Below, piece after piece: positions 3,924 through 22,636 of a stretch of 33,048 nt of DNA. Position 1 is the first letter of the stretch, and each line of letters starts with the position of its first letter. Position numbers and translations under genes: made by a program. The DNA comes from Peptostreptococcales bacterium (GTDB lineage Bacteria > Bacillota > Clostridia > Peptostreptococcales > Anaerovoracaceae), in NCBI GenBank assembly GCA_038248565.1, contig JBBRXH010000001.1, positions 1 to 33,048 of the forward strand. Direction: 5' to 3'. Below the pieces are notes generated by a model. The model was not told the DNA's origin. It saw only the letters and a list, made by a program, of their open reading frames with translations, and made no database searches.

Positions 3924-5389
3924 CGCTCTGCTCCTAAAATATCAGCTATTGCGCATGCGACTAATTTATAATCATCCGGGTCAATAGTCCTCACATTCAG
4001 CAGGAGGGTATCCTGATGAATGCGGCATAAAATCGGTATAGTGTATTTTCTCAAACTTTCCTGTAGTTTGTCCAGACTCATGTCCTGTGGTGCAAGGGAT
4101 ACAGCTCTGCCAGGCAGCAGGACACCAGGCAGGGAGCCTCCGCCAACCTCATCCAGCTCCTCCACAATACCAATATCAGCTATACTGCCATTCTCCAGCC
4201 TGCCCAAGCCAATGGTCTGAATCAGACAATTCTTTATCATTTCAGCTAAGGCTTCAGCCCTGATTTCCAGTTCTTCCGGCTTTAATGCCATCATTTTCAG
4301 TACCGGGATATGAAACGCCACTGAGTTTTCATTTAAATAAATCTTTAATACCGAAGTCAGCGCAGCAAAGGTCATCTTGCAGGGCCTTACCATGCGAGCC
4401 AGAGGATTTGCCTTTATCCGGTCGATGAGGTCTTTTTTGCCTGCAATAATTCCCGCCTGAGGGCCGCCAAGGAGCTTGTCTCCACTGAAGGTGACGAGAG
4501 AAACCCCCCTTTTGATGCTGTCCTGAACCGTCGGTTCATAGGGTAGCCCTATTGACCTTAGGTCAATGAGACTGCCGCTGCCTAAATCTTCTACGACCAG
4601 GAGCCCCTTTTTTTGGGCAAGATCGACCAGGATTTCAAGGTCAACACTTTCGGCAAAACCGGTTACCCTATAATTGCTGGTATGCACCTTAAGTAAAACT
4701 CGGGTGTCCTGAGTGATCGCCTTCTCATAATCTTTAAGATGGGTCTTGTTGGTCGTGCCGATCTCCACCATCTTGGCCCCGCTGCCGGAGATAAGATCAG
4801 GAATGCGAAAGCTGCCGCCTATTTCAACCTGCTGGCCTCTGGAAACGATGACCTCCCGGGCCTGGGCCAGGGTATTGATGCACAGGAAAACCGCGGCTGC
4901 GTTATTGTTCACAACCAAAGCACTTTCGGCTCCTGTCAGCTCTTTAATCAGAAATTCAGCCTGGGAATGTCTGTAGCCTCTTCTTCCGGTTTCAAGATCA
5001 TACTCCAGATTGCTGTAGCCTTCTGAAACAGCAGATACCGCCGCTACTGCCTTCTGTGGCAAAGGCGCTCTGCCAAGGTTGGTATGGAGCACGATGCCCG
5101 TAGCATTGATGACCCTGCCCAGCTCCTGGCGGCTTTCTTTAGCAAGGGCTTCGATAATGCGGCTGGCTATAAACCCCGGCACCTCTTCTTTAGATTTAAT
5201 CCCTTTAGTTTGGCAAAAATCCGGATGATCTCCGGCCTCCTGCTTAAAAATTTCCAGCACTAATTTTGAAGTGCGAAGGACGGCTTCTCTGCCTTCCCCC
5301 AGCACGTAACCGGATAGGGCTTCCGCTTCAAGGATTTTATTGATGGGAGGAATAGCCCGTAGGGCCTCTTTACTGCTCATTTGGTTCAT
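3920..5389 (-). CDS. selA: L-seryl-tRNA(Sec) selenium transferase SelA
   Basis: 489 aa from the ATG at 5389, preceded by AGGAGG. The longer 5479 start of the track would overlap selD by 77 nt. SelA-typical blocks are present: NATGIVLHTNLGRAPL, NNNAAAV, FSGDKLLGGPQAG (PLP Lys). Confidence 0.95.
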   Translation of the reverse strand: MNQMSSKEALRAIPPINKILEAEALSGYVLGEGREAVLRTSKLVLEIFKQEAGDHPDFCQTKGIKSKEEVPGFIASRIIEALAKESRQELGRVINATGIVLHTNLGRAPLPQKAVAAVSAVSEGYSNLEYDLETGRRGYRHSQAEFLIKELTGAESALVVNNNAAAVFLCINTLAQAREVIVSRGQQVEIGGSFRIPDLISGSGAKMVEIGTTNKTHLKDYEKAITQDTRVLLKVHTSNYRVTGFAESVDLEILVDLAQKKGLLVVEDLGSGSLIDLRSIGLPYEPTVQDSIKRGVSLVTFSGDKLLGGPQAGIIAGKKDLIDRIKANPLARMVRPCKMTFAALTSVLKIYLNENSVAFHIPVLKMMALKPEELEIRAEALAEMIKNCLIQTIGLGRLENGSIADIGIVEELDEVGGGSLPGVLLPGRAVSLAPQDMSLDKLQESLRKYTIPILCRIHQDTLLLNVRTIDPDDYKLVACAIADILGAER

Positions 5390-16385: not shown

Positions 16386-17361
16386 AATCCGCTGCCATTT
16401 GCTCCCGAATCCACTTATAGGTCTTCCTAATGCCTTCTTGAAGCGGCCTCTCCGGCTTCCAATCCAGCTTTTCATAAATCAGACGGTTATCTGATTTTCT
16501 GCCGCGAACGCCCTGGGGCCCTTCAATACAATTGACATTAAGTGCTTTGCCGGATTCTGCGATGATCATCTGTGCCAGATCGTAAATCGTGATTAACTCT
16601 TCAGATCCTATATTGACCGGTTCTGAAAAATCAGAGTCCATCAATCTGAGGACCCCATCGATGCATTCATCTATATAGAGAAATGTGCGGCTCTGTTTTC
16701 CATCGCCCCAGATATCGATGCTTCCGCCGTTTTCGGCGGCTGCAGTTTTTCTGCATAATGCCGCCGGGGCTTTTTCTTTGCCACCCCGCCATGTCCCAAG
16801 GGGACCGAATATATTGTGGAATCTTGCAATACGTACATCCAGGTTGTAATTCCGCTGATAGGCTTTATATAAGCGTTCACTAAAGAGTTTTTCCCACCCA
16901 TATTCGCTATCCGGTTCTGCCGGATAGGCTGAAAGTTCATTACAAATCGGATTATCCGGATCCTCCTGGTTATATTTCGGATAGATGCAGGCAGAAGATG
17001 AGTAAAATATTTTTGTTACCTTTTTACTTCTGCAGGCTTCAAGCATATTCAAATTAATCATGGCAGAATTATGCATGATATTAGCATCGTTGTCCCCGGT
17101 AAAAACATATCCGGCTCCGCCCATATCAGCCGCCAGCTGATAGAGTTCGTCAAATTCATTTTCTGCGATCCTCATGCAAAATTCCGGATCACGAAGATCG
17201 CCAATCACGAAATTATCGGCATCGGTATGTTCAAATTCTGGCCATTTCAGGTCAACGCCCGTTACCCAATACCCCAATGATTTCAGTCGCTTAACCAGAT
17301 GATGTCCAATAAATCCTCCTGCTCCGGTTACCAGAGCTCTCTTGCTGTAGCTGTTTTCCAT
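16363..17361 (-). CDS. NAD-dependent sugar-nucleotide epimerase, GDP-mannose 3,5-epimerase-like (extended SDR)
   Basis: 332 aa. TGAGGFIGHH, ADMGG, SSACIYP, YGWEKL (YxxxK), RFHNIFGPLGTWRGGKEKAPAALCRK and IDECIDGVLRLM are near-colinear with the plant/bacterial GME blocks I recall. RBS GGAGG. Confidence 0.8.
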   Translation of the reverse strand: MENSYSKRALVTGAGGFIGHHLVKRLKSLGYWVTGVDLKWPEFEHTDADNFVIGDLRDPEFCMRIAENEFDELYQLAADMGGAGYVFTGDNDANIMHNSAMINLNMLEACRSKKVTKIFYSSSACIYPKYNQEDPDNPICNELSAYPAEPDSEYGWEKLFSERLYKAYQRNYNLDVRIARFHNIFGPLGTWRGGKEKAPAALCRKTAAAENGGSIDIWGDGKQSRTFLYIDECIDGVLRLMDSDFSEPVNIGSEELITIYDLAQMIIAESGKALNVNCIEGPQGVRGRKSDNRLIYEKLDWKPERPLQEGIRKTYKWIREQMAADFMPSVQP

Positions 17362-17414
17362 TTTTCAGACCTCCAATATGTCGTGAAATAGAATCTCCAA
17401 AGTTTTTTTATTTG

Positions 17415-17443
17415 ATTATATCCTTTCGGAAGACTCATTTCAA
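17415..17443 (-). promoter_or_regulatory. Promoter candidate for the epimerase gene
   Basis: Minus strand TTGAAA (17443..17438), 17-nt spacer, TATAAT (17420..17415). Confidence 0.45.
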
Positions 17444-17483
17444 TTCAAAGCGCAAACTCCGAGTTCCAGCGCATCTTTGCCTA

Positions 17484-17512
17484 TTGACAAAAGAACATAC
17501 GTTCGTTATTAT
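17484..17512 (+). promoter_or_regulatory. SOS promoter with LexA (Cheo) box in the spacer
   Basis: TTGACA (17484..17489), 17-nt spacer, TATTAT (17507..17512). The spacer contains AGAACATACGTTCG (17492..17505), which matches the Gram-positive LexA consensus CGAAC-N4-GTTCG. Confidence 0.7.
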
Positions 17513-17543
17513 AGAGTTACTCCCAGAATGCGAGGTAACTCTT

Positions 17544-18791
17544 ATGTCCATTATTATGCATATCGACGCCAACTCGGCTTATTTAAGCTGGGAGGCGGTT
17601 CATAGATTAAAAACCCGCGGCGGTGTGGACCTTCGCGAAGTTCCCAGCGTTATCGCCGGCGATCCCGCCAAGCGTCACGGCATAATCCTGGCCAAATCCA
17701 TCCCGGCCAAAAAAGTCGGGATCAAAACCGGCGAGAGCCTCATGGAGGCCAGGAATAAATGTCCGGGGCTCGTTGTGTTGGGTCCGAATTATGATTTGTA
17801 TTTAGCCTGCAGCGACGCCATGTATCGGATCTTAAGCAGTTATTCTCCCCTTATACAGCGCTATTCTGTAGACGAGTGTTTTTTGGATTACACCGCTTCT
17901 CAAAAGCGCTATGGGGATCCGGTCTCTGTTGCCTATGATATAAAAGAACGCATTAAAAGAGAATTGGGTTTTACAGTCAACATCGGAGTCTCTACGAATA
18001 AGCTGCTGGCCAAGATGGGCTCTGAACTTGAGAAGCCGGACCGGGTACATACCCTCTGGCCTGAGGAGATTGCATCAAAAATGTGGCCCCTTCCTGTTTC
18101 CGAGCTTTTTATGGTAGGCCGGGCTACGGCCAAAAAACTCAGAGACCGCAATATACTGACTATCGGCGATCTGGCCAGGCAGGACCCAAGTCATATTAAA
18201 GTGTATTTAAAAAACCCCGGTCTTTTAGTTTGGGGGTATGCCAATGGCATAGATATTTCCCCGGTAATACTTAATGATGATATCGTTCAAAAGGGCATCG
18301 GCAACAGCACCACCCTATCCTTTGACGTCACGAGCAGAAAGGAGGCCCTAATGGTGCTTCTGGCTCTGACCGAGAGAGTCTGCGCCCGGCTTCGCAAATA
18401 TGGGAGAGTCTGTTCCCTGGTTTCCGTATCTATCAGAACCAGTGCTTTCAGCGGCGGCTCCCATCAGATTCAGCTTCAGAGCTATACGAATACCACCTCG
18501 GATATCTACCGTTACGTTGTGAGACTTTTCGATGAGATGTGGCGGGGAGAACCCATCCGGCTCCTGGGCGTCCAGATTTCCAATTTCACAAAGGATAGCC
18601 TGGTCCAGCTCTCCATTTTCGACATGAAGAACAGAGACAGCGAGGAGAGGATCGATCAGGCCGTGGATAAAGTCAGAGCCCGCTATGGCGACAGCGCTAT
18701 CATGCGTGGCTGCTTTGCCAACAGCCCTATAAAACCCCTGCAGGGCGGCGTCAACGAAGGCGATTATATTGGAATGGGTGGCTACAGGTGA
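17544..18791 (+). CDS. Y-family translesion DNA polymerase (UmuC/PolY2-like active-site signature)
   Basis: 415 aa from the ATG at 17544 (GAGGT 7 nt upstream). The 17412 start of the track would begin upstream of the promoter and read through the LexA box. HIDANSAYLSWEA (D-x-N as in UmuC CDVNAFYASCE), SVDECFLD, SxNKLLAKM and C-terminal QLSIFD blocks. Confidence 0.9.
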   Translation: MSIIMHIDANSAYLSWEAVHRLKTRGGVDLREVPSVIAGDPAKRHGIILAKSIPAKKVGIKTGESLMEARNKCPGLVVLGPNYDLYLACSDAMYRILSSYSPLIQRYSVDECFLDYTASQKRYGDPVSVAYDIKERIKRELGFTVNIGVSTNKLLAKMGSELEKPDRVHTLWPEEIASKMWPLPVSELFMVGRATAKKLRDRNILTIGDLARQDPSHIKVYLKNPGLLVWGYANGIDISPVILNDDIVQKGIGNSTTLSFDVTSRKEALMVLLALTERVCARLRKYGRVCSLVSVSIRTSAFSGGSHQIQLQSYTNTTSDIYRYVVRLFDEMWRGEPIRLLGVQISNFTKDSLVQLSIFDMKNRDSEERIDQAVDKVRARYGDSAIMRGCFANSPIKPLQGGVNEGDYIGMGGYR

Positions 18792-19051
18792 AAATTATCG
18801 GAGACGGCATAGATGCCATCGTCAAGTTTAAGGGCAAAAATAAGCCTGAACCTATTAAATTCAGCATTGCTGATTCGGATGGTGCCGGAAGAGTGATTAA
18901 GGTCGACAAGGTTATTTGCGTAGAAGAGGATAATTCTGCGGGCATCAAGTCTTATGTGTACAGATGCCAAAGCCAGATTGAGGGCGAGCTTAAGCTTTAT
19001 GAACTGAAATACTACATCCAGGATTGCCGCTGGGTTCTGTATAAAATATAA
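18788..19051 (+). CDS. Hypothetical 87-aa protein translationally coupled to the Y-family polymerase
   Basis: The GTG start overlaps the polymerase stop (GTGA at 18788..18791). A weak SD GGGTGG lies 6 nt upstream. I recognise no family for it. It sits inside the LexA-controlled unit, between the polymerase and SRAP genes. Confidence 0.5.
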   Translation: MKIIGDGIDAIVKFKGKNKPEPIKFSIADSDGAGRVIKVDKVICVEEDNSAGIKSYVYRCQSQIEGELKLYELKYYIQDCRWVLYKI

Positions 19052-19103
19052 TGAATGTGTGAGGCGCTTAATAATCTGATTCAAGAGAGGGGATGCATGG
19101 AGG

Positions 19104-19718
19104 ATGTGCGGAAGATATCAGTTTGACAATGAAGTCAATATCGCTGAGCTTGAGAAGATCATTTCACAGCTCAATAAGGACTATTATGGCACCCAGAAGC
19201 TGTCTGCCATGAAAACCGGCGAAGTATTTCCAACTGATCTGGCTCCTGTTATAGTCGATGAAAACGGCGTGGAGAAACCTGTTCTGATGAACTGGGGCTT
19301 TCCCAAGTGGGATTCCCATGGCGTAATCATTAATGCAAGGTCCGAGACAGCCGAAGATAAGCCAATGTTTCAGACGGCTTTTCATAAACACAGATGTCTG
19401 ATCCCCGCCACCGGTTTTTTTGAATGGCAGCATAAGGAAAGCCCGCCACATAAAGCGAAATATCTGATAAAATCCGAGGATTATCCGATGCTCTATATGG
19501 CAGGCTTATACGATTTTTTCAAAGATTTGAACGGGCTGCTGATCCCATCCTTTGTCATCCTTACGACCGCAGCCAATCCGTCTATGTCAGGTATTCACGA
19601 CAGAATGCCTCTGATTCTCTCGGGCGGCGACAGATTGTCCTGGCTTCAGGACCGGGAAGCGTCGCAGGCACTGCTGCGACGACCCTGCGATGCCAATCTT
19701 CTACTGCGCTTGGCGTGA
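19104..19718 (+). CDS. SOS response-associated peptidase (SRAP/YedK, abasic-site DNA-protein crosslinking protein)
   Basis: 204 aa. Begins MCGRY (catalytic Cys2). Also WGF, INARSET and ATGFFEW blocks typical of DUF159/SRAP. Confidence 0.9.
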   Translation: MCGRYQFDNEVNIAELEKIISQLNKDYYGTQKLSAMKTGEVFPTDLAPVIVDENGVEKPVLMNWGFPKWDSHGVIINARSETAEDKPMFQTAFHKHRCLIPATGFFEWQHKESPPHKAKYLIKSEDYPMLYMAGLYDFFKDLNGLLIPSFVILTTAANPSMSGIHDRMPLILSGGDRLSWLQDREASQALLRRPCDANLLLRLA

Positions 19719-20150
19719 CGGAGGCGCTTGGCCTGATAGGCCCGCCAATTTGCAATAACTTTGTATGGCGTTATTCATAAATTCCGCCAGGCCTTCCTGC
19801 CGCTTGTCGATGTTTGTCTTGAATCGTTCATCGCTTATGTACATGCTGCCCAAGCCGGCTAGCATATCATCGCTGCAGCTATAATAATATGTCGAGATGT
19901 GTGTTTGCCATGCGATTGCCAGCTGCCTTGCTTCAGAAGATTCCGGGCCTTTTCCCATGACGGCTATGAAGCCCGCGTAAATTTCCTCCGCCTCTTTCGT
20001 AATCTTTTCCCAATCCTCTTTTGTGTAGCTGCCGGTTTTTCTTACGCTTTCTTTATAGGCATCCGTATCTCCCCATCTTTGGTTAGCTTCTTCCTGATAC
20101 TTGGCTTTTGCCTCTTTAATATCTGTCATGTCGAATTCCTTAAAGCTCAT
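19701..20150 (-). CDS. TipAS-like antibiotic-recognition domain protein (stand-alone C-terminal half of a former MerR/TipAL regulator)
   Basis: 149 aa from the ATG at 20150, which has a strong AAGGAGG 7 nt upstream; the track starts at 20216. MSFKEFDM...AKAKYQEEANQRWGDTDAYKES...W blocks match TipAS domains. Confidence 0.75.
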   Translation of the reverse strand: MSFKEFDMTDIKEAKAKYQEEANQRWGDTDAYKESVRKTGSYTKEDWEKITKEAEEIYAGFIAVMGKGPESSEARQLAIAWQTHISTYYYSCSDDMLAGLGSMYISDERFKTNIDKRQEGLAEFMNNAIQSYCKLAGLSGQAPPSRQAQ

Positions 20151-20216
20151 GACTTTTCCTCCTTTTATGGATTTCTCGATAAGTCGAATCAGCCCCTCGT
20201 AGCGACGGACTTTCAT

Positions 20217-20344
20217 GGTTAATAGTTGTTTTTGTTGGGTTAGGGCCTTTTGGGCATCAAAGTCCTTTTTTCCTGATCATAAAACCTGTATCCGGCTTCC
20301 GACAGAGATGCCGGCTTCAGAAGTCCCAGCTGATCATAGTAATG
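20217..20344 (-). pseudogene. Remnant of the MerR-type HTH domain of the TipAL-like gene (5'-truncated, internally deleted, frameshifted)
   Basis: The minus strand reads HYYDQLGLLKPASLSEAGYRFYDQEK and then stops; this is the MerR wing signature. The next frame reads DFDAQKALTQQKQLLTMKVRRYEGLIRLIEKSIKG, which is the coiled-coil linker and runs into the TipAS ORF. The first ~20 HTH codons and ~30 codons of helix 5 are absent. The frame change is at an A-run (GGAAAAAAGG). Confidence 0.6.
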
Positions 20345-20744: not shown

Positions 20745-21506
20745 TCAGTCCGGTTTCTTCGTTGCGCAGGGAACCCCGGTCATACACTTGGCACAGACAT
20801 CGGCAAAACCGATTTCCTTGTATTCCTCTGCGTTTTCATAAGTAACTGCCATGCATTTCCTATTATCATAATAATCCGGGACATCCAGAGCTGAGACCGG
20901 GCACTTTACAAGGCATAGTCCGCAGCTGCCATCCCTCTTATAAAGACAGTATTCCTCTTCAGGTCTTGGAGTCGGCTTGATGTAGGCATCGGTGATCAAG
21001 GTTCCAATGCGCCCGCAGACGCCCTTTTCCGTAATCAGCCCCCTATTGATGCCAAAAGTTCCCAGGCCCGCTATATATGCGGCATGGCGATGGGACCAGT
21101 CGCACTTCATAGTCTCGGGATCCCAGCTTCTATGATTTGCTGTGACAGAAAGCTGCCAACCATCCAGTTCAAATAGCTTTTGCAGTCCGTTATTTATACC
21201 ATTAATAAGGTCTATGGTTTCAAAATAACCAAATACCCAGGCCTTGGAAGAAAAGTAGCCGGGTATATTGGAATCTGCTATATTTTTAGACAGAGGAATA
21301 AAATAGCTGATTACCGTTCTCCCGTCAGCCATGATATCCTGAGGCAGTTTATGGTATTCTCCAATGACTGTCTTTAATCCAATAAAAAGCGGATCCGCAG
21401 CATCTGCATAGGCAAATACCGGCTCTTCCCAGCGGGATTTTATTTCAGGCTTTTCATTATAACATCTCACAAATTCCACTATAAATGCTTCCAATTTCTC
21501 TTTCAT
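20745..21506 (-). CDS. 4Fe-4S protein of the QueG / reductive-dehalogenase-like superfamily
   Basis: 253 aa. HRHAAYIAGLGTFGINRGLITEKGVCGRIGTLITD core, followed by CGLCLVKCP and CAKCMTGVPC cysteine clusters. Subfamily not resolved. Confidence 0.5.
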   Translation of the reverse strand: MKEKLEAFIVEFVRCYNEKPEIKSRWEEPVFAYADAADPLFIGLKTVIGEYHKLPQDIMADGRTVISYFIPLSKNIADSNIPGYFSSKAWVFGYFETIDLINGINNGLQKLFELDGWQLSVTANHRSWDPETMKCDWSHRHAAYIAGLGTFGINRGLITEKGVCGRIGTLITDAYIKPTPRPEEEYCLYKRDGSCGLCLVKCPVSALDVPDYYDNRKCMAVTYENAEEYKEIGFADVCAKCMTGVPCATKKPD

Positions 21507-21664: not shown

Positions 21665-22636
21665 ATGAGTTTTTTTAAACATGAGCATACTATTAAAGCC
21701 AAGGACGAAGCATCCGACTACCAGGTTCGGCTTATGCAGGAGGACGGTTCGCCCGGACCCCTTACCAAAATCGAACGGCTAAATCTGACAAATGAAGAAT
21801 GGCAAAAAAGACTTACCCCGGATGAATTTAAGGTACTTAGAGCCCAGGGAACGGAACCTGCATTTTGCGGTCTTTTGACCGATGAGAAAGAAAACGGCGT
21901 TTATTTCTGCGTCGGCTGTGGTCTGCCGCTTTTCAGTTCAGAGGCCAAATTCCATTCAGGTACAGGCTGGCCCAGCTTTTTTAGTCCCTTTGCCCCGGAA
22001 AATATTATCGAGAAATCCGATATCAGCTTTGGCATGGTCCGTACCGAAATCCTCTGCACACGCTGCGGCAGTCACCTTGGTCATGTATTCACAGATGGTC
22101 CAAAACCAACAGGGCTGCGTTACTGTCTTAACTCCCTGGCTCTTAAGTTTATGCCAAGTGTCAAAACCCAGCAAGCGACTTTTGCTGCAGGCTGTTTCTG
22201 GGGCGTTGAAAGCGATTTTCGTAAAATCCCGGGTGTTTTGGATGTCCTCTCCGGCTACACCGGCGGCCATACGGATAATCCAAATTATAAGGAAGTCTGC
22301 ACCGATAAAACCGGTCATGCGGAAGCAGTTCTCGTTACCTTCGACCCGGTTAAAGTCTCCTTTGAACAGCTTCTGTCTGCCTTTTGGCTGCTCCATGATC
22401 CAACCCAGTTCAATCGTCAGGGGCCTGACTATGGTTCCCAGTACCGCTCGGCGATTTTTACCCATACCGAGGATCAGAAAGCACTGGCAGAAAAATCACG
22501 GGAAGCTATGAATGCATCCGGCCATTATAAAAAACCCATCGTTACCGAGATAACACCCGCCAGCCACTTTTGGCCTGCAGAAGATTACCATCAGCGCTAT
22601 AATGAGAAACATGGCGGCGGTAGCTGTCATATTTAA
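21665..22636 (+). CDS. msrAB: Bifunctional peptide-methionine sulfoxide reductase, MsrB (N-terminal) fused to MsrA (C-terminal)
   Basis: 323 aa.
- MsrB half: CVGCGLPLF...[12 protein letters not shown] zinc motifs and the catalytic RYCLNS.
- MsrA half: the catalytic GCFWG and GYTGG.
RBS AAGGAGG. Confidence 0.92.

Follow-up and report, generated by a model that had tools for sequence, protein, structure and literature searches.

A small gene coupled to an SOS-type Y-family DNA polymerase in Anaerovoracaceae probably codes for a free-standing and strongly diverged ImuB-C domain

The first 33,048 nucleotides (nt) of contig JBBRXH010000001.1 (assembly GCA_038248565.1; a Peptostreptococcales bacterium of the family Anaerovoracaceae), hereafter the window, encode a Y-family DNA polymerase and, directly downstream of it, a small open reading frame (ORF) of 87 codons at positions 18788-19051. 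The product of this ORF is probably a free-standing, strongly diverged version of ImuB-C, the small all-beta C-terminal domain of ImuB (Pfam DUF6504), and would serve as the non-catalytic small subunit or adaptor of the SOS polymerase. At the level of sequence comparison, we regard the homology to ImuB-C, the synteny with the polymerase, the conserved overlap of the two genes and the conserved LexA box as established.

The 87-codon ORF is a real conserved gene. A word-indexed search retrieves 17 clusters of relatives (clusters are defined at 50% identity throughout) with 41-100% identity, all 86-89 amino acids (aa) in length, and an exhaustive phmmer search retrieves 321 representative clusters at E<=0.001, 43 of these at E<=1e-10 and nearly all of 82-92 aa. 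The aligned relatives share the same Met-Lys start, encoded by ATG, GTG or TTG as the first codon, and the same C-terminus, and the nucleotide differences from two orthologues are concentrated in the third codon position (10/10/41 and 17/15/53 at positions 1/2/3). At least 90% of the 17 close members retain K24 and K41, and the family is basic on average (median isoelectric point 9.1 and net charge +4 among 126 members). The AlphaFold2 model of the 87-aa protein, built from a 126-sequence alignment, is all-beta, with seven strands and no helix, and is highly confident (mean predicted local distance difference test score, pLDDT, 95.3; predicted template-modelling score 0.85), which bears out the beta-rich structure that an earlier reading of the window, made without database searches (the sequence-only reading), had anticipated. 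Direct searches with the protein yield no Pfam or NCBIfam family at E<=1, a single chance match (E 1.8) in the PDB and no match in the phage collection.

The relationship to ImuB-C emerges from profile-profile comparison. As defined by Aravind (2013), the domain has a conserved C-terminal Trp as its hallmark, together with conserved basic residues and no catalytic pattern (PMC3765255). Comparison with hhalign of the 126-sequence family alignment (A2) with 30 DUF6504 ORFs gives a probability of 96.2% (E 2.5e-9, 79 columns), and comparison of the family with an independent alignment of the matched segments (A3) gives 95.7% (E 9.9e-9, 77 columns, residues 1-87), both alignments extending nearly end to end; among the controls, the reversed A3 reaches 0.2%, 20 column-shuffled versions of A3 at most 0.9%, and YolD 2%. 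A hidden Markov model (HMM) built from A3 only also reaches the family, albeit weakly (5 of the 13 ORFs of a small local set, E 0.0016-0.013), and in a tblastn comparison the window protein shows 44% identity to one DUF6504 ORF over the C-terminal third of that ORF. Of the eight DUF6504 columns with the highest conservation, four are aligned with the family residues P22, F25, W82 and L84; the counterpart of W82, which is kept in at least 90% of the 126 members, is W72, invariant in the DUF6504 set. That DUF6504 is ImuB's C-terminal domain is illustrated by a 475-aa ImuB-like ORF with an IMS domain at residues 39-130 and DUF6504 at 394-466. For a canonical DUF6504 protein, the model (pLDDT 92.5) shows a strand order identical to that of the 87-aa protein, and such all-beta models with a shared strand order fit the statement, in the passages of PMC12926913 that deal with ImuB-C, that no related structure has been solved. 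In its overall make-up, a protein of about 80-100 aa, all-beta, with a C-terminal Trp and no catalytic motif, the small protein thus resembles the known stand-alone ImuB-C proteins (PF20114), which likewise lie beside Y-family polymerases, under LexA control and often with SRAP.

The gene neighborhood links the small protein to the polymerase. A scan of one genome per prokaryote species yielded 91 relatives. We retained 80 loci, whose main sources are Anaerovoracaceae, Anaerovorax, Aminipila, Bacilliculturomica and unclassified clostridial metagenome-assembled genomes (MAGs); in two of them, the contig ends immediately before the small gene, leaving 78 testable ones. According to tblastn searches with three proteins of the window, in 72 of the 78 the gene immediately upstream, in the same orientation, encodes an orthologous polymerase (53-85% identity), so that homologues usually but not always follow a Y-family polymerase gene: the remaining six loci hold the small gene alone. 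The ORF is thus both conserved, in the 321 clusters, and syntenic with polymerase genes, two of the points on which the sequence-only reading had made its proposal depend. In the window, the GTG start codon sits in AGGTGAAAA and therefore overlaps the TGA stop of the polymerase ORF by four bases (GTGA), exactly as that reading had it for sequence, coordinates and overlap alike. The same four-base overlap recurs in 57 of the 72 junctions, with a 1-base overlap in three and a 26-base overlap in six, which adds up to a stop/start overlap of some length in 66; in the last six, 6-25 bases, in many cases with AGGAGG, separate the two genes. Codons for the MGGY motif at the end of the polymerase also form the G-rich stretch immediately 5' of the start of the small gene. 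Binning errors, not transfers, probably account for two polymerase and small gene pairs (L016 and L032) on short contigs (2.8 and 3.7 kb), the MAGs of which carry the labels Proteobacteria and Fermentimonas (Bacteroidota).

The placement of the ORF within a LexA-controlled unit, also proposed from the sequence alone, is equally well supported. The window contains only two strict GAAC-N4-GTTC sites, a motif that we take to be the Gram-positive LexA box; one, a predicted site at 17493-17504, lies upstream of the polymerase gene. A strict box within 150 nt 5' of the polymerase start is found in 58 of the 61 loci that include this region, against a background of 80 strict boxes in the 625,098 nt that the 80 loci comprise. 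The second site of the window, GAACTCCGGTTC, is at 297-308. A scan of 17300-20300 in the window detected no terminator-like site on the + strand, and a SRAP gene, present in the window 52 nt 3' of the small ORF with no terminator-like site in between, follows the small gene in 13 of the 80 loci.

The polymerase itself belongs to the Y family and, as judged from its sequence, is apparently active; its start is most likely the ATG at 17544. The sequence-only reading called it UmuC-type, which holds only loosely: the family is right, and yet the best NCBIfam model is of the DinB/PolY2 type (PRK03103, matched over positions 5-389 of 410 with 352.6 bits, below its cut-off of 381), followed by PRK01810 with 296.3 bits, whereas the UmuC model scores just 117.3. 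Phage-borne polymerases are at most 47.7% identical to it, and UvrX about 29%. Towards the C-terminus, the protein carries a predicted motif of the beta-clamp-binding type, QLSIF (consensus QxxLF; PMC12926913), then the stretch EERIDQAVDKVRARYGDSAIMRG, which by position and by conservation in aligned tails is located where the RecA N-terminus-like (RecA-NT-like) motif of Y-family polymerases sits (for the concept, see PMC6511836 and PMC12926913), and finally the conserved tail CFANSPIKPLQGGVNEGDYIGMGGYR.

This tail tracks the small gene. As seen across the window and loci L121-L150, polymerases linked to the gene have a tail of the type 'P.QGGV..(D/E).Y..MGGYR' or '...GGV...DYPMMSSLL', whereas polymerases from the same family of organisms without the small gene terminate after '...D.IR.KYG...I.RG' or carry unrelated acidic tails. 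Among 41 related genomes, 18 encode a tail-bearing polymerase, and the small gene is present in 16 of these 18; the 23 genomes without the tail include one real match to the small gene (G021, 85% complete), and most related polymerases that lack the small gene also lack the tail. The related genomes are kin rather than independent samples, and the counts are given without a statistical test. In total, the small gene is matched in 18 of the 41 genomes at E<=0.01, a count that includes a weak match in G030 with an in-frame TAA and a spurious one in G033. The latter was considered as a fused 477-aa form and rejected because the frame turned out to be a 468-aa ORF, unrelated and clustered with other large ORFs. 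In two genomes, the small gene is convergent to the polymerase gene, at a distance of 29 nt in G036 and about 800 nt in G025.

These observations suggest a simple scenario. Given the one shared LexA-type box and the conserved stop/start overlap, both proteins should appear together after DNA damage, with the small protein made along with the polymerase through coupled translation at the GTGA overlap. By analogy with the proposed modules of PolY and ImuB-C (with or without RecA), it would then serve the translesion polymerase as a non-catalytic small subunit or adaptor, docking on the lineage-specific conserved tail that comes after the clamp motif and the RecA-NT-like stretch of the polymerase. 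We infer physical binding at this site because the tail and the small gene co-occur. Lesion bypass or mutagenesis may be affected as well. No other known small partner appears to be present, given that canonical YolD is found in none of the 41 related genomes and no DnaE2 exceeds the cut-off in the window's own genome (best score 587 of 939 bits; genome 89% complete). The scenario is in line with published work, in which ImuB-C is seen as a non-catalytic PolY-binding regulatory subunit and, within ImuB, is modelled in contact with DnaE2 and ImuA (PMC12926913).

Several results weigh against this interpretation, some against the family assignment and others against the partnership. The Pfam model of DUF6504 (PF20114; cut-off 24.2 bits) does not match the 87-aa protein at E<=1 and has no match at E<=10 in the genome of the window; nor is DUF6504 among the 25 listed of the 51 families matched by any of the 126 members, none of which is matched consistently. 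With the Pfam model blind to the protein, membership rests on the profile-profile comparison and the weak direct HMM scores. Of the four DUF6504 Trp residues with invariant or near-invariant conservation, the family also lacks three, and no fused polymerase-ImuB-C form of the subfamily turned up at E<=0.01 among 8000 longer candidates, which is weak evidence. With regard to the partnership, G029 and G040, two genomes of one genus, encode a tail-bearing polymerase, and HMM searches of their loci did not find the small gene. Furthermore, among the six genomes with a stand-alone copy of the small gene, five were searched for the polymerase (those of L050, L051, L054, L061 and L071), and only one has a cognate polymerase gene at another site (full length, 64% identity and a box of its own), which argues against obligatory pairing; two others have only a 37%-identical paralogue, and the remaining two no match at E<=1e-20.

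The stand-alone copies keep alive the alternative that the ImuB-C-type domain is mainly a polymerase-independent SOS factor, for example a sensor or binder of damaged DNA or an adaptor for other repair proteins, as proposed by Aravind, and that the adjacency to the polymerase reflects co-regulation instead of a stable complex. In the six loci concerned (L050, L054, L061 and L071, with the small gene at about position 5001; L051, at about 2749; L079, at about 3726), the neighbours are unrelated and the small gene has, without exception, a strict GAAC-N4-GTTC box of its own 38-78 nt 5' of the start, between TTG... and TATAAT-like hexamers. The same direction is indicated by the basic character of the family and by the stand-alone ImuB-C genes of the literature that lie beside Ku/ligase, SplB photolyase or SRAP without a polymerase (PMC3765255). 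Nevertheless, we consider this alternative rather unlikely. The small-gene start overlaps the polymerase stop in 66 of 72 loci, as stoichiometric partners typically do, the small gene co-occurs with the tail (16 of 18 genomes with it versus 1 of 23 without), and the stand-alone cases come from incomplete MAGs, several of them from the ruminant gut, such that the missing polymerases possibly reflect MAG incompleteness. A more far-reaching and less probable reading is that the small protein, besides being a polymerase subunit of the ImuB-C type, would also act without the polymerase, as a general LexA-controlled adaptor, where only the stand-alone gene is kept.

A much less probable alternative is that the small protein is a strict counterpart of UmuD' or YolD, namely, an SH3-type subunit that inserts an N-terminal arm, from a YolD group diverged beyond recognition. 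The genomic logic is the same as in yolD-uvrX, with a small gene adjoining an SOS polymerase, and the resemblance extends to YolD/YqjX with UvrX/YqjW (PolY2) of Bacillus, where a small SOS-induced protein beside a Gram-positive Y-family polymerase is a proposed UmuD analogue; YolD variants linked solely by a short N-terminal arm have been reported (PMC12926913), and hhalign does detect a short local resemblance to YolD (23 columns, P 0.025). However, YolD is rejected on the hhalign probability of 2.0% in local and 0.1% in global mode, obtained against an alignment of 31 YolD sequences (phi3T YolD and those of 30 loci), a direct search for YolD homologues having returned only near-identical Bacillus proteins. 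The YolD family PF08863 matches neither the protein nor any of its 126 relatives, and it exceeds the cut-off in 0 of the 41 related genomes compared with 22 of 301 genomes in a phylum sample. YolD has an arm-helix-SH3-like layout rather than the fold modelled here and shows no sequence relation to the small protein; the N-terminal stretch of the YolD alignment, resembling 'RG.IKW..MMLPEH', is lacking, and in the model residues 3-13 form one of the strands. The polymerases differ as well: those linked to YolD score 590-639 bits with PRK03103, match to the model end and have a tail of the form '...IGGH..', whereas that of the window stays below the cut-off of this YqjW-type model, stops short of its end and has a different tail. 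Finally, the gene order is opposite to that of phi3T yolD-uvrX, with a different polymerase subfamily. In Staphylococcus aureus, a YolD-type small gene can also sit apart with its own LexA box (PMC6511836).

The comparison with UmuD'2C (Pol V) of Escherichia coli leads to the same verdict. Both systems combine a LexA-controlled polymerase with a small subunit, and UmuC's conserved C-terminal tail is a proposed docking site for UmuD' (PMC6511836). Unlike UmuD', the small protein has neither an S24 peptidase domain nor signs of self-cleavage according to Pfam, its gene lies downstream rather than upstream, and the polymerase is a poor match to the UmuC model, as noted above. UmuD, an S24 peptidase with a Ser-Lys dyad, was rejected as an identity because the Pfam scan gave no S24 match, nor one to any other family, at E<=1, although no profile-profile test was aimed at S24. 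The sequence-only reading was therefore right to separate the protein from both UmuD and YolD. The GTG start, and a look for RNA runs covering the stretch that found none, are points for a non-coding ORF, be it a chance frame or a stretch conserved as an RNA element or as the 3' end of the polymerase gene. This idea can practically be dismissed in view of the narrow length range across 321 clusters, the third-position substitution bias, the conserved Met-Lys starts, the confident fold (pLDDT 95.3) and the stand-alone copies with their own promoters.

Free-standing ImuB-C has precedents, so that one part of the sequence-only reading stands and another does not. The proposal of an accessory subunit is supported by synteny (72 of 78 loci) and by the LexA box (58 of 61), and is a reasonable idea in line with published predictions. 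By contrast, the 'undescribed functional analogue' is not undescribed, because stand-alone ImuB-C partners were published in 2013 and 2019 (PMC3765255, PMC6511836). Aravind (2013) described stand-alone ImuB-C beside DinB-type polymerases in operons with LexA and SRAP (PMC3765255), and Timinskas and Venclovas (2019) described ImuB-C coupled to clostridial YqjH-type polymerases (PMC6511836). Examples named in the literature are GSU0042 of Geobacter sulfurreducens, Swol_1669 of Syntrophomonas wolfei and Deide_1p01890 of Deinococcus deserti, and the role of the stand-alone form has been called not clear (PMC8072749). The present locus is similar to the clostridial YqjH-type systems in its active-type Y-family polymerase, clamp motif and RecA-NT-like stretch and in the lack of DnaE2 and ImuA (PMC6511836). 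The subfamily may possibly fall within the two subgroups of that work; the passages concerned mention neither the polymerase tail nor stand-alone LexA-controlled copies. A literature search on YolD with Y-family polymerases and on ImuB-C/DUF6504 found no paper specific to this subfamily.

What is new, and of modest interest, is a branch missed by the Pfam model, a polymerase tail that tracks the small gene and six stand-alone copies with LexA boxes. The branch comprises at least 126 clusters and differs from canonical DUF6504 in lacking the tryptophans of WRG and W..D.G.WW (median number of Trp 1 versus 5) and in having conserved Cys (median 2 versus 0), with C60 in at least 90% of members. 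Canonical DUF6504 proteins are likewise basic (median isoelectric point 9.3 versus 9.1). This branch also follows an apparently active polymerase, unlike several sampled canonical copies, which adjoin very divergent Y-family homologues (about 20% identity). PF20114 exceeds the cut-off in 91 of 401 genomes of a phylum sample and in 0 of 12 listed genomes of the window's class. Since the model misses the branch, surveys that rely on it under-count ImuB-C in anaerobic Firmicutes. ImuB-C is among the least understood parts of bacterial mutasomes, with neither a solved structure nor a biochemically tested stand-alone member in the passages on this domain in the ImuB-C literature (PMC3765255, PMC6511836, PMC8072749, PMC12926913). 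The locus is a compact case, in which an active-type polymerase, an 87-aa ImuB-C and SRAP share one LexA box, without DnaE2, ImuA or YolD. That a defined polymerase tail occurs together with the small gene offers a concrete and cheap hypothesis on how ImuB-C binds a polymerase, and cultured carriers exist (Anaerovorax odorimutans DSM 5092 and Bacilliculturomica massiliensis).

Table 1. Features of the polymerase and small-gene locus in the window
Feature	Position	Strand	Basis or remark
Promoter-like site TTGACA-17 nt-TATTAT for the operon	17484..17512	+	Consensus scan, 11/12 matches
Predicted LexA (Cheo-type) box GAACATACGTTC	17493..17504	.	Strict GAAC-N4-GTTC, inside the promoter spacer
Y-family DNA polymerase, 415 aa, DinB/YqjH-YqjW-related	17544..18791	+	Pfam IMS E 3.7e-36, IMS_HHH, IMS_C E 5.3e-30
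QLSIF, predicted beta-clamp-binding-type motif, polymerase residues 355-359	18606..18620	+	Read from the translation
EERIDQAVDKVRARYGDSAIMRG, polymerase residues 367-389, at the site of the Y-family RecA-NT-like motif	18642..18710	+	Position and conservation in aligned tails
Conserved polymerase C-terminal tail CFANSPIKPLQGGVNEGDYIGMGGYR, candidate docking site for the small protein	18711..18788	+	Tail/gene co-occurrence
Probable stand-alone ImuB-C (DUF6504-superfamily) protein, 87 aa	18788..19051	+	GTG start overlapping the polymerase stop (GTGA)
SRAP (YedK/HMCES-type) protein, 204 aa, N-terminus MCGRY	19104..19718	+	Pfam SRAP PF02586, E 1.8e-44

The SRAP gene is probably the last gene of the unit. 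Another promoter-like site, TTGCCG-17-TATAAT at 19024-19052, lies within the end of the small ORF and, going by its sequence, could drive SRAP separately. The 3' end of the SRAP gene overlaps by 18 nt a convergent gene (19701-20216, - strand) for a 171-aa protein made up of a TipAS antibiotic-recognition domain (E 9.1e-39); at E<=1e-5, a MerR-type DNA-binding domain is not detected. Further downstream, a 253-aa ORF (20745-21506, - strand) has no Pfam family at E<=1e-5 and contains Cys-rich stretches (e.g., C..C..C...CP) that by eye resemble iron-sulfur motifs, and the gene at 21665-22636 (+ strand) encodes a fused MsrB-MsrA methionine sulfoxide reductase with SelR and PMSR domains.

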